Below the pieces are notes generated by a model that worked only from the letters and a program-made list of their open reading frames with translations, ran no database searches and was not told where the DNA came from. DNA of 64,000 bases. It comes from an uncultured Anaerolineales bacterium. Its GTDB lineage: Bacteria > Chloroflexota > Anaerolineae > UBA1429. Position 1 is the first letter of the stretch. The number at the start of each line of letters is the position of its first letter. Positions 36,514 through 39,858 of this stretch are shown piece by piece. Location of the stretch: contig CAZYWU010000002.1 of NCBI GenBank assembly GCA_964651255.1, forward strand, positions 16,038 through 80,037, read 5' to 3'. The translations under genes and the position numbers were made by a program.

Positions 36514-36697
36514 GCTCATCCCTCCCGCGCACAACGCCCAAGATTGCCGACAAGAGTGTCGGCGGTCCGATGCCGCTCATCCCTCCCGCGCACAGCGCCC
36601 AAGATTGCCGACAAGAATGTCGGCGGTCCGATGCCGCTCATCCCTCCCGCGCGCGGGGCCCAAGACCGACACCGAATGTCCCGGAGAACAACGCCCG
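36514..36697. repeat. 61-bp tandem direct repeat: 2 near-identical copies plus a degenerate third
   Basis: Copies at ~36514-36574 and 36575-36635 differ at 2 of 61 positions; a third diverged copy at 36636-~36697. On the minus (sense) strand each unit is hairpin CCGACAcucuUGUCGG plus GGGAGGG ATG AGC. Copy 3 encodes the rSAM C-terminus and stop. Confidence 0.85.
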
Positions 36698-38101
36698 TTT
36701 TGCCCGCCAGACCAGTTTTCCCTTGAGTGAGCCACCCGGGGCGATACCCTCCAGCTCGTCAAAGTTGCCTCTTTGCGCCCAGTAGAGTGGGCAGGCGCCG
36801 CCACAAATATGCCGGATCTCGCAGCGCTCGCACACGGGTGGAATGAACTCTTTGTTCCTCCAATAGCGAGCCGTCCGGCTATTCCAAACAGTTTCGAAAG
36901 GCTGGTGCAACAGATCTCCAATGCCCTTCTCGAAACTGGAGCACGGCAGCAGCTCGCCCGCGGGATTCACAGAGATGAGGCCGTCAACACAGGCGCACGA
37001 TTTGCTGCCCAGGCCTGCCTGCACCGGATTGAACATACAATAGGGCACGGGCGAGTACCAGACAAACTCAATCCCCCGTTCGCGCGAGTAGGCCTGCACC
37101 TGCTCAATGATCGGGCCCACCTCCGCATAGGACATGTCGTCCTCATCATGGGCGAGAGCCGTCCCTGTACGGATCACCATATTCATAGAAAAGTACTCGC
37201 TGTGGAGATCCTCGGCCAGGAAATCGATGAGCTCCCGCCAGTGATCCCTGTTTCCTCCACAGAGCGTCGTGTTGGTGTGTGTATGCACATTCAGTGACCG
37301 CAGGTTGCGCACGCCCTGTGTGGCCGCAACCCACGATCCCGGATGCTGTGTGATCGCATCGTGTACGGCGCTGCTACCGCCCTCGATGCTCACCTGGGCG
37401 GAATCGAGACCGGCCTCCGCAAGCGACCGCGCATAGTCCAGGTCTCCGCAGCGAATCCCATTGGTGATCAGATTCACCCGCAGCCCCTTGGAGGCACCGT
37501 ATCGCACCAGCTCGGGCAGGTCCGTACGTAGCGTCGGCTCACCACCGGTGAATGAGAGTGTTGGGCATCGCGCTTCATCGGCGATCCGGTCGATGATGAC
37601 CTTCACCTCAGCGGTGGTCATCTCTTTGACATCGTCACCCCGGTTCGGCGCATTCGCATAGCAAAAGGTACAGCGATTGTTGCACCTGTAGGTCAGCGCG
37701 ATCTCGGATAGCACCGGCAGCGTGCGCTTGTGCGATCCAAATCGCATCACCTTCACACCTGGGACATCCATGATACGGTCGTTCAGTACGGACAACAGGC
37801 CCTCCAGCAGCGTGCTGATGTCGGCACGCACTCGCGCGGCATCCACGCCGTGACGTTGCGACACCTCGTCCACGAGCTCCTCGACGTCCGGCCCGCCCTC
37901 CCGGCTATAGAGGCGATCCAGCATGAAAGCCGCCGTTGCATTGAGGTAGTGCATGCTGGTCGGCCGAACGATCATCAGGCCGTCCTCGGGCCGGATGTAG
38001 ATGTACTCTCGTGTCGTGGCGATCACCTGCTCCGCAAAGCTCTGCAGATGAGGGGGCCCACTTGAATAACCCTGGTTCGTGCTTCGAACTTGATCTGTCA
38101 T
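36638..38101 (-). CDS. Radical SAM/SPASM-domain peptide-maturase-like enzyme with N-terminal PqqD-like RRE domain
   Basis: N-terminal ~90 aa PqqD/RRE-like (IYIRPEDGLMIVRPTSMHYLNATAAFMLDRL); CNNRCTFCY CxxxCxxC; SPASM cysteines CACVDG...CSSF...CERCEIRHICGGACP. ATG at 38101 is 5 nt after the upstream stop (alternative TTG at 38125). Confidence 0.85.
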   Translation of the reverse strand: MTDQVRSTNQGYSSGPPHLQSFAEQVIATTREYIYIRPEDGLMIVRPTSMHYLNATAAFMLDRLYSREGGPDVEELVDEVSQRHGVDAARVRADISTLLEGLLSVLNDRIMDVPGVKVMRFGSHKRTLPVLSEIALTYRCNNRCTFCYANAPNRGDDVKEMTTAEVKVIIDRIADEARCPTLSFTGGEPTLRTDLPELVRYGASKGLRVNLITNGIRCGDLDYARSLAEAGLDSAQVSIEGGSSAVHDAITQHPGSWVAATQGVRNLRSLNVHTHTNTTLCGGNRDHWRELIDFLAEDLHSEYFSMNMVIRTGTALAHDEDDMSYAEVGPIIEQVQAYSRERGIEFVWYSPVPYCMFNPVQAGLGSKSCACVDGLISVNPAGELLPCSSFEKGIGDLLHQPFETVWNSRTARYWRNKEFIPPVCERCEIRHICGGACPLYWAQRGNFDELEGIAPGGSLKGKLVWRAKRALFSGTFGVGLGPRAREG

Positions 38102-38106
38102 GCGGA

Positions 38107-39858
38107 TCACACCCGGCTCACACAAGCGCTGTGGCAGGCGCTGTGACAGGCGCTGTGGACACAGGCGCTGTGGCAGGCACTGTGACAGGCGTCGTGAACA
38201 CAGGCGCTGTGACAGGCATCGTGCACGCAGGCGCTGTGGCAGGCGCTGTGACAGGCGCTATGGCTCGGGGCAGACACCTCGTCTCCAAGCAGCCCGCCCG
38301 CCGCTCGCTCGATGCGATCCACCGTACGTCCCATGACCTCCTCCACGCCCCGGGTGAGCTGATCCGCCATATTCTCCAGAGGGCGCACGGTCTCATCGGC
38401 CATCGTAAAGATCGGACCGGGGGTACTGGAGCTTGTCGCAGGACGCGGCACACCGGCAGGGCTATACGTGTTTTCGCTGAGGATTACCCAGGGCATATAA
38501 GTGGGCATATGCACCGGCGTCCCCATCTGGGTCTCGTGCTCGTACTCGCGCCAGGCCTCCTCGATGCGGCGACGATATTCTTCTCGGGTCTTGTCCGGGT
38601 CAGCGTTCCACATTTTGGGCTGAACCACATCGGCCACGGCCTGCAGGATCGTCGGAATCTGGTCCTTGTCGATTGTGCCATCCTCGAGGATGGCCTTGAG
38701 CAGCGCCTGCTCGTACACGGGCAGCGCAGCGATCTCCTCGTCCGTGCGACGCAGCAACTCGAGCTGCAGCGGCTGGCGATTGACGATATTGACGAAACCC
38801 TTTTGCTCCAGCGACACAACGATGAGGGCCACCGTCTTGGTAGAGTTGCCCATATAGAACGCTGTCTCAATGGCGGTCAGATCCGGTACCACGCCCTCGG
38901 TCTGGAATGTCTCGACCTCGATCTCGGGCGGCATATAGGTCCTGGTGGGCTTGCGCTTGCGCAGGGCCCAGATCACCAGACCCAGCACGACCGCTGCGAC
39001 AGGCGCGCCGATGCAGCAGGTAAGCTCGTTAAAGAGCGACTCGACCGCCTCGCCGACGGTCAACGGTTCTTCGGCGACTGCCGGCGTCGGCCTGTCCAGG
39101 GGAATGGGCGTCTCACGGGTCACCGTGATCGAACCGCCCGGCAGGAAAAAGGCAGGGATCATCTGGGCCATCGCGGGCTGGTTCGTTTCTGCTACCAGGA
39201 TGGAAAGATAGTTCTTACCGCTCGCCTCATCAGGCGTCGAAAAGTACACCCACCGGTCGAATGCATCGGCGTTATTCACAACCAGACCGGCTTCATTCAC
39301 CAGCGCATCCGTCACCTGCTCCGCCGTGGTCACATCGGCGGGCAGCTCTATCGGCAGGATGTAGCGGATTTCCTGGTAGGCGATGGGCAAGGACCATTGG
39401 AAGGGAGCCCAGCCTATGGCCCGGTACGGCTGCCCCCCGATGCTGGTTTCATCAAAGACGGAACGGTCGACGCTGTACCGGATGTGAACCTCATACTGGC
39501 TGTTGAGCTCCGTCCTGATGCCAAAGTTCACCGCATACGCAGTGGGCCCACCGGACAGGTTGACAGGAAATCGTCCGTCCGGGCCCACACCGTAGGCATC
39601 CGTGATCGTGTGCGGTTGCGGGAACTGGCCCAATTCGCGAAAACCCTCGCGTCCCGCTGCTTCGAGTTCGGTAAAGGTGATCGTATAGCGCACATCCAGC
39701 CGCCCATCGCTGAGCACGACGACATAGTTCTCGATGGAATCGAGAGATATGGGGTCTCCCTGTGCCTGCGTGGCAAGACCGCTGGACAAGAGCACCAGCA
39801 ACAGAGCCAGCGAAATCCAGGTCACCCTGCTCAAGCGTCGCATAGCGATTCTCCTCAT
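38107..39858 (-). CDS. DUF2207-like bitopic membrane protein ending in a C-terminal (HSAC/VHDAC)x11 Cys/His repeat tail
   Basis: Signal peptide [24 protein letters not shown], extracellular beta domain ([26 protein letters not shown]), TM [19 protein letters not shown], cytoplasmic domain, then [55 protein letters not shown] stop. GGGAGAGG RBS before the ATG at 39858. Confidence 0.7.
   Translation of the reverse strand: [583 protein letters not shown]
38110..38265. repeat. 12-nt (occasionally 15-nt) periodic DNA repeat GGCGCTGTG(G/A)CA encoding the Cys-His tail
   Basis: About 11 in-frame units (minus strand TGC/TGT CAC AGC GCC = C H S A) verified codon by codon. Confidence 0.85.

Follow-up and report, generated by a model that had tools for sequence, protein, structure and literature searches.

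A 64,000-nucleotide stretch of DNA from an uncultured Anaerolineales bacterium (contig CAZYWU010000002.1, positions 16,038 to 80,037; referred to here as the window) encodes a 583-residue membrane protein (38107..39858, minus strand) that ends in a repeat rich in Cys and His and, directly after it, a 487-residue radical S-adenosylmethionine (SAM) enzyme (36638..38101, minus strand). Comparative sequence analysis points to this tail as the probable substrate of the adjacent enzyme, in a system akin to those of the peptides that are made on ribosomes and then modified post-translationally (RiPPs) in which the end of a membrane protein would serve as the core; much less confidence attaches to any particular chemistry for the modification. 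The idea had been raised by a first-pass annotation of the same DNA, and it now draws support from the genetic linkage of the two genes, from a conserved RiPP recognition element (RRE) in the enzyme and from structural matches to RiPP maturases.

The proposed core (residues 533-579; 38122..38262, minus strand) forms the C-terminus of the membrane protein and comprises 11 tandem H-x-A-C units with 11 Cys and 11 His, as had been counted at first pass. The units of the window read HSAC, VHDAC or VHSAC, with a Cys spacing of C-x3-C on seven occasions and C-x4-C on three. Among 135 distinct tails, the residue three positions before each Cys (-3) is His, with Tyr taking its place in the first unit, that at -2 is Ser, Asp, Thr or Gly, that at -1 is Ala and rarely Asn, and extra Val residues are placed between a Cys and the following His; the unit is defined as [H/Y]-x-[A/N]-C. 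Conservation within the protein peaks in the tail, where the column mean is 0.97-0.99 compared to 0.3-0.8 in the remainder, and the Ala at -1, together with the number and order of units, is almost fixed from bacteria to metagenome-assembled genomes (MAGs) labelled archaeal. Across a 31-residue core common to 55 loci, identity is 97% at the amino acid level, 77% at the nucleotide level and 53% at third codon positions, so that selection is seen to act on the tail peptide rather than on a repeat in the DNA; the Ser codons of the tail alternate between AGY and TCN among loci. In all 140 loci, drawn from several phyla, the tail is found in frame at the C-terminus of one protein family.

The genomic association of tail and enzyme was examined in two subfamilies. 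A scan with one genome per species yielded 560 stretches in which a relative of the enzyme is encoded, mostly from Anaerolineae and also from MAGs labelled Armatimonadota or archaeal Thermoproteota/Nitrososphaerota. From these, 80 loci were fetched and analysed as subfamily 1, the window type, with enzymes 51-92% identical to that of the window; homologues retrieved by a protein search were 60-92% identical, and the named ones were annotated as Chloroflexota or Anaerolineae. In the window itself, the TGA stop of the tail-protein gene (38109-38107) and the ATG of the enzyme gene at 38101 are separated by TCCGC, the 5-nt junction described in the first-pass annotation. Orthologues of the tail protein were found in 62 of the 80 loci, and the tail lies within 6 kb of the radical SAM gene in 60. 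The tail protein is encoded directly upstream of the enzyme in 52 loci and 0.8-4.6 kb upstream, with another gene between, in 5, whereas the order in three loci from MAGs labelled Nitrososphaerota or Thermoproteota runs from the radical SAM gene through a coiled-coil gene, discussed below, to the tail protein. No tail was detectable in 20 loci, about ten of which have less than 400 nt of upstream sequence.

Subfamily 2 was reached through the tail alone: a phmmer search retrieved proteins with diverged tails, and five of these proteins, once aligned, served as the query against metagenome contigs, giving 386 relatives, from which 80 loci were fetched and, with three more from protein look-ups, 83 were examined. 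The tail, here a strict (ACH[SDG])n array ending in ACVSGGAH, is present in all 83 loci, one of which belongs to a member annotated as Candidatus Ozemobacteraceae. The protein bearing it is only about 25% identical to the window tail protein, and a radical SAM enzyme about 40% identical to that of the window is encoded just downstream in 66 loci, most of the remaining 17 being truncated contigs. The other partners are different: a 340-residue polytopic membrane protein follows the radical SAM gene in 45 loci and a 129-residue protein precedes the tail protein in 26, and family searches gave no informative match for these partner proteins. The pair has therefore survived divergence while its neighbourhood was otherwise wholly changed. 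The co-occurrence to be expected from the first-pass proposal is thus seen in both subfamilies; on this comparative evidence the pairing is not one of chance neighbourhood, and the alternative entertained at first pass, that the radical SAM gene is merely an unrelated neighbour, is ruled out by the linkage in both.

The enzyme displays the architecture of an RRE-guided peptide maturase, and the three Pfam domains suggested at first pass were all found in it. The N-terminal PqqD-like RRE (PF05402; residues 43-103; 37793..37975, minus strand) reaches 37.6 bits, above its gathering score of 23.4, and is modelled by AlphaFold2 (AF2) as a winged helix-turn-helix spanning residues 19-107. It is followed by the radical SAM domain (PF04055, residues 136-295, E 1.2e-27), which bears the CX3CX2C cluster motif (C140, C144 and C147; 37661..37684, minus strand), and by a SPASM domain (PF13186, residues 369-428, 32.4 bits against a cut-off of 21.5). 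The SPASM region (36791..37039, minus strand) contains eight Cys (355, 369, 371, 387, 424, 427, 433 and 437), including a CX2CX5CX3C arrangement. The three Cys of the radical SAM motif are invariant in 22 homologues and at least 95% conserved across both subfamilies; Cys 355, 369, 387, 424, 427, 433 and 437 are likewise invariant in the 22 homologues and kept in both subfamilies, where they are predicted to ligate two auxiliary clusters, and C371 and C434 are nearly invariant. In total, 79 columns are conserved to at least 95% across both enzyme subfamilies, including all of the cluster Cys, and the same level of conservation extends to an RRE-like motif of R37, D40, L42, I44, P47 and N54. This retention of an RRE-like N-terminus in both subfamilies favours the tail as the substrate.

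Comparison with known structures leads in the same direction. The neighbours of the enzyme in a sequence search of the Protein Data Bank (PDB) are GDGT-MAS and BlsE, which match in the core only, SkfB, for which the match includes the RRE, PqqE and CteB. The AF2 model (predicted template modelling score, 0.69) finds SkfB and SuiB as its top Foldseek matches, with CteB, TigE and anSME further down, and the alignments with SkfB, SuiB, CteB and TigE span 430-480 columns. Since the full-length matches are RRE-bearing RiPP maturases, they too favour a peptide substrate such as the tail. No other candidate presents itself, which likewise favours the tail: no Cys-rich small open reading frame (ORF) that could act as an alternative precursor occurs in the window or in the tail-less loci. 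A separate small precursor gene, which the first-pass annotation had not seen nearby either, is rejected by the sizes of the intergenic gaps in the window (an ATGA overlap, 5 nt, 118 nt holding a tandem duplication, and 32 nt), which leave no room for one, and by a scan of the flanks of loci lacking the tail protein, in which no periodic Cys-rich ORF of another kind was found.

No curated model covers the enzyme or the tail protein. Among the 25 NCBIfam matches listed for the enzyme, every one is far below the cut-off of its family, the lowest at 64 bits; the curated families considered include AhbD, NirJ, PqqE, StsB (91 bits against a cut-off of 625), GeoRSP, ACGX, HxsC, PapB and MftC. The subfamily-2 enzyme is similarly below the cut-off of all curated NCBIfam radical SAM families, as exemplified by the PapB model (74 bits against a cut-off of 340).

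The tail protein is a type-I-like membrane protein with distant likeness to DUF2207. Its hydropathy profile (Kyte-Doolittle window >1.6) indicates a signal or anchor segment at residues 9-32 and a single transmembrane segment at approximately residues 278-300, followed by RKRK. In the AF2 model, which has a mean predicted local distance difference test (pLDDT) of 78, the signal/anchor helix (residues 9-32) precedes an extracytoplasmic β-sandwich domain (residues 37-240; 39139..39750, minus strand; pLDDT >90). This domain resembles domain I of the M1 aminopeptidases (Foldseek E ~1e-6), a likeness that, judged from the model, is one of general fold and carries no catalytic meaning. The single transmembrane helix (residues 281-300; 38959..39018, minus strand), modelled as a helix from residue 284 to 300 and succeeded by the RKRK sequence, leads into a conserved, predicted cytoplasmic α/β domain with invariant columns and a winged helix-turn-helix-like appearance (residues 305-445; 38524..38946, minus strand; pLDDT >90), the confident part of which comprises residues 329-445. 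This domain holds a K-x-W-N/D-A/C-D-x-x-A-T-R motif that is common to subfamily 2, and matches TIGR04222 weakly (E 0.0016). By the positive-inside rule, the C-terminal 280 or so residues, including the tail, are predicted to reside in the cytoplasm, consistent with the cytoplasmic location given to the tail at first pass, with the hydropathy and with the model. A tail so located would be within reach of the radical SAM enzyme. The tail itself is modelled as disordered, with a pLDDT <50, and short low-confidence helices are drawn there.

Just upstream of the tail is an amphipathic helix (residues 482-523, also a helix in the AF2 model; 38290..38415, minus strand) with the pattern P-x-P-L...A...E..[MF]A......E, which is kept from Chloroflexota to the archaeal-labelled MAGs. 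Within the alignment, E495 and E506 never vary, A487 and A498 hardly do, and the helix occurs 10-50 residues upstream of the tail. This leader-like element is the obvious candidate for the docking site of the RRE.

The label "DUF2207-like", which the tail protein had received at first pass, holds for the family and not for the window protein. PF09972, the N-terminal domain of DUF2207, is matched by 16 of 23 orthologues with a best E-value of 3.3e-6, and PF20990 (DUF2207_C) by two, which indicates remote homology at the level of the family; the window protein itself has no Pfam match, even at E-values up to 1 for the DUF2207 domains. Nothing specific to it was found in Pfam, NCBIfam or PADLOC, nor anything meaningful in a PDB sequence search. 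In common with the DUF2207 proteins (PF09972/PF20990) and TIGR04222, it has a signal peptide, a β-sandwich ectodomain, a transmembrane helix and a cytoplasmic domain; it differs in having one transmembrane helix only after the ectodomain, and the DUF2207 family description includes neither an H-x-A-C tail nor a radical SAM partner.

A plausible course of maturation can be drawn from these features. The tail protein would insert into the membrane with its β-sandwich outside the cell and approximately 280 residues inside, where the PqqD-like RRE of the enzyme would dock on the conserved helix that lies a short way upstream of the tail. The 11 [His/Tyr]-x-[Ala/Asn]-Cys units might then be worked through by the enzyme, each receiving one radical-derived crosslink. 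The modified tail would remain attached to the protein as a rigid module decorated with His and Cys and could, speculatively, act as a metal- or redox-active protein-derived cofactor. A more elaborate proposal, and a rather doubtful one, is that the product represents a new protein-derived cofactor in which a membrane-tethered array of 11-13 His/Cys macrocycles binds a chain of metal ions, or serves in redox reactions or electron transfer to connect the DUF2207-like ectodomain with the cytoplasm.

Two types of chemistry with direct precedents may be considered for the crosslink. Triceptide cyclophane synthases (3-CyFEs) are SPASM-type enzymes, and the first option would be a HaaB-like, three-residue cyclophane joining His-C2 to Ala-Cβ. 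On aromatic-X-X motifs, triceptide synthases form a crosslink between the aromatic residue and the Cβ of the third residue; HaaB forms the His-C2 to Ala-Cβ bond on HAA, while HtkB acts on HTK and YhhB on HNR (PMC11499958), and repeated copies are exemplified by the substrate of WprB with its three WPR motifs (PMC11851443). Each unit of the present tail holds an aromatic-X-X motif in the form of H-x-A, H-x-N or Y-x-A. Triceptide substrates, however, are short secreted precursor peptides, and the invariant Cys after the motif is not part of the triceptide definition. The second option would be a four-residue thioether ring between the Cys sulfur and the residue at -3 or its neighbour, as made by NxxcB and by the sactipeptide and ranthipeptide synthases. 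NxxcB connects Cys-S to the Cβ of an Asn three positions upstream in N-x-x-C, forming a four-residue ring, whereas sactipeptide enzymes join Cys-S with a Cα (PMC11851443). The enzyme studied here shares with NxxcB, SkfB, CteB and PapB the RRE-radical SAM-SPASM architecture, SkfB and CteB being among its best sequence and structure matches, and in these systems Cys-S is the crosslink donor. PapB reportedly processes six repeated C-x3-D motifs. The difference is in the acceptor, which would be His or Ala in the present case, and we know of no thioether precedent with either. The replacement of His by Tyr in the first unit favours a role for the aromatic ring, and the invariant Cys would be either a bond partner or a retained ligand.

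Several points weigh against the tail as a substrate of the enzyme. RRE-dependent maturases normally act on short peptides and not on 580-residue membrane proteins. About ten informative loci, with enzymes 51-56% identical to that of the window, encode no tail protein within 6 kb, and these same loci retain the coiled-coil and zinc-ribbon genes that otherwise accompany the pair. The best NCBIfam scores of the enzyme are those to AhbD (137 bits, cut-off 500) and NirJ2 (126 bits), tetrapyrrole enzymes that score slightly above the peptide maturases, although all are far below their cut-offs. Finally, the near-invariant array of Cys and His could simply be a metal or Fe-S site.

The best-surviving rival explanation builds on this last point and holds that the tail is an unmodified module, a ladder of Zn, Ni, Cu or Fe or an Fe-S site, which cooperates with the radical SAM enzyme, for instance as a cluster donor, electron donor or scaffold, while the enzyme acts elsewhere. 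Each unit would offer one thiolate and one imidazole, amounting to 11 Cys and 11 His in 47 residues, and the i/i+4 spacing would align these ligands on one face of a helix; AF2 draws short low-confidence helices there. The scores to the cofactor-modifying AhbD and NirJ2, and the persistence of the coiled-coil and zinc-ribbon genes with the radical SAM gene where no tail protein is adjacent, would also suit such an arrangement. Nevertheless, we judge it unlikely, as metal-binding tails usually keep their composition and not their exact sequence, whereas almost no variation is seen here in the Ala at -1, in the number of units or in their order; the Tyr that stands for His in the first unit suits an aromatic crosslink partner more than a ligand of soft metals, the enzyme has a conserved and predicted peptide-binding RRE, and no Pfam metal-binding family matches the tail at E-values up to 10. 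Attachment of c-type heme through the overlapping C-x3-C-H motifs, which look like variant sites of that kind, was also considered and is unlikely, with the tail predicted to lie in the cytoplasm; it is retained as a remote idea in view of the weak AhbD/NirJ-like scores.

Very improbable is a second rival, in which the tail is modified, then cleaved and released as a diffusible RiPP, leaving a 530-residue membrane protein to act as a giant leader or export platform. RRE-radical SAM-SPASM enzymes do typically make secreted RiPPs, and a gene for an InhA-like metalloprotease is found downstream in 35 of the 80 subfamily-1 loci. This gene, however, is kept only among closer relatives, and its product is probably extracellular, on the other side of the membrane from the predicted position of the tail. 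The cassette has no conserved transporter or leader peptidase, the core hardly varies from phylum to phylum, unlike antimicrobial RiPPs, and the domains other than the tail are well conserved and confidently folded in the AF2 model. That the repeat is instead a feature of the DNA (a tandem repeat, an insert that is mobile and of low complexity, or an artefact of gene calling at high GC content) beside an incidental radical SAM gene can be dismissed, for although Tandem Repeats Finder detects arrays of period 12 and 39 at the tail and assemblies often break there, the divergence at third codon positions and the switches of Ser codons under a near-identical peptide, the fixed C-terminal and in-frame location in a single protein family and the conserved adjacency to the radical SAM gene all oppose it.

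Maturation of the tail by its neighbouring enzyme thus remains the preferred reading, and its novelty must be measured against known systems. The closest concept is TIGR04117, the "Cys-Xaa-Xaa-Xaa repeat radical SAM target protein" (Syntroph_Cxxx; model length 98, cut-off 50 bits, NCBI type "paralog"), which similarly describes a predicted target of a radical SAM/SPASM enzyme with a C-terminal Cys at every fourth position; to our knowledge, it is a bioinformatic prediction without published chemistry. Its members are stand-alone proteins of about 98 residues, whereas the H-x-A-C unit described here ends a 580-residue DUF2207-like membrane protein. The window tail has no match to TIGR04117 at E-values up to 10, and the subfamily-2 tails reach 12.6-16.2 bits (E 0.008-0.1), far below the cut-off; PF27846 (tSAM_targ_Cxxx_rpt), the form in which this family appears among precomputed Pfam marks, gives a "weak" mark on one subfamily-2 protein and none on a subfamily-1 orthologue. 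The claim of a new RiPP-like architecture made at first pass therefore stands in part. A Cys-x3 repeat as a radical SAM target is a concept already embodied in TIGR04117 and is not new. Apparently new are the H-x-A-C unit, the location of the repeat at the terminus of a 580-residue membrane protein of DUF2207-like type, the near-identity of the array in different domains of life and the dedicated clade of enzymes. Full-text literature searches found no paper on the H-x-A-C motif or on the enzyme-target pair, and the DUF2207 papers found do not concern this system.

Modification of a genetically linked protein by a SPASM radical SAM enzyme has precedents in QhpD, which acts on QhpC of quinohemoprotein amine dehydrogenase, and in anSME, which acts on sulfatases. 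Both yield a functional protein that carries its crosslink or cofactor internally, and not a released peptide; QhpD forms thioethers from Cys to Asp or Glu, and anSME recognizes the motif C/S-x-P/A-x-R. These targets are soluble and modified at one or few sites, in contrast to an 11-13-fold repeat on a membrane anchor. An anSME-type target was rejected in the present case, the formylglycine motif being absent from the tail, the units of which read C-H-S-A-C with no Arg at +4. We know of no earlier case in which an integral membrane protein is matured by a radical SAM enzyme under the guidance of an RRE, and the present one would be the first. If true, it would carry this chemistry beyond small secreted peptides, to a tail borne by a large membrane protein, and would offer a substrate of 11-13 identical sites for the study of processivity and of new His/Cys crosslinks. 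DUF2207-like proteins of unassigned function would gain a testable hypothesis, and with it a first functional handle on their superfamily. The Anaerolineae in which the system is chiefly found are an abundant and poorly understood group of sediments and digesters.

Two further genes belong to the cassette of subfamily 1. The third member encodes a conserved coiled-coil protein of about 397 residues (35326..36519, minus strand), found by tblastn directly after the radical SAM gene in 69 of the 80 loci; at the archaeal-labelled locus L051, a coiled-coil protein of 401 residues is encoded between the radical SAM and tail-protein genes. The fourth encodes a small protein of 162 residues with two transmembrane helices and a C-terminal zinc ribbon (34805..35293, minus strand), detected by tblastn in 60 of the 80 loci and always downstream of the coiled-coil gene. 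Family searches gave only weak SMC-like coiled-coil matches for the former, for which the PDB sequence search gave no meaningful match, and weak zinc-ribbon Pfam matches for the latter, with nothing specific to either in Pfam, NCBIfam or PADLOC.

Other neighbours are not counted as part of the system. The ATG of the tail-protein gene overlaps the stop of an upstream WecG-type gene as ATGA, and this gene, together with those of a GT4 glycosyltransferase, a GHMP kinase and the InhA-like protein, is kept in close relatives only. The last of these (32853..34847, minus strand) encodes an InhA-like HExxH metalloprotease with a MAM domain, shares 43 nt with the end of the zinc-ribbon gene and is probably no more than an operon neighbour. 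Scanning the window for Rfam families and tRNAs yielded nothing, and a scan for promoters and terminators was of no help. The junction between the end of the radical SAM gene and the start of the next gene is present in two tandem 61-nt copies (36514..36635, minus strand), which are 97% alike and each bear GGGAGGG-ATG, with a third copy of 64% similarity at 36636-36696. This duplication is an insertion specific to the window and is absent from the 92%-identical locus L001. By way of ATGA overlaps, a 41-residue ORF (36516..36641, minus strand) connects the stop of the radical SAM gene with the ATG of the coiled-coil gene at 36519.

Searches of a large protein database with the tail protein, with or without its tail, returned 15-16 homologues, mostly truncated, and thousands were returned for the radical SAM query; with the database copies in this state, the tail-protein orthologues were drawn from the fetched DNA loci. 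Runs of N occur inside the tail in L028 and L074, and several short contigs (L081-L083) stop right after it, as do those of P0155 and P0138, which are uninformative on downstream genes. Assemblies or gene calls seem to fail at the repeat, which may be the reason that the family has been overlooked.

A number of smaller observations were made in the loci of both subfamilies. In six subfamily-1 loci (L052, L053, L057, L058, L065 and L078), a gene inserted upstream of the radical SAM gene encodes a common C-terminal motif (...EVYLPIVVKKY, ...WYIYLPLVL or ...EVYLPVIWK), often after Thr/Pro-rich linkers, which may be a C-terminal sorting signal of Chloroflexota. Among the proteins retrieved with the tail alone, P0140 (624 residues) has its H-x-A-C tail extended by CDSSCDSCHSSC repeats, and P0150 (246 residues) bears many Y-[DS]-[AS]-C units (YDACYSACYDACY...) after an N-terminal hydrophobic segment, so that the unit recurs with Tyr in place of His on a scaffold of unrelated type. 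Beside the subfamily-2 cassette on the 2.17-Mb contig of L164 are an AAA_22 gene (4486-6747) and a TIR-domain gene (6744-7685), a pair that looks defence-like and is probably unrelated to the cassette.

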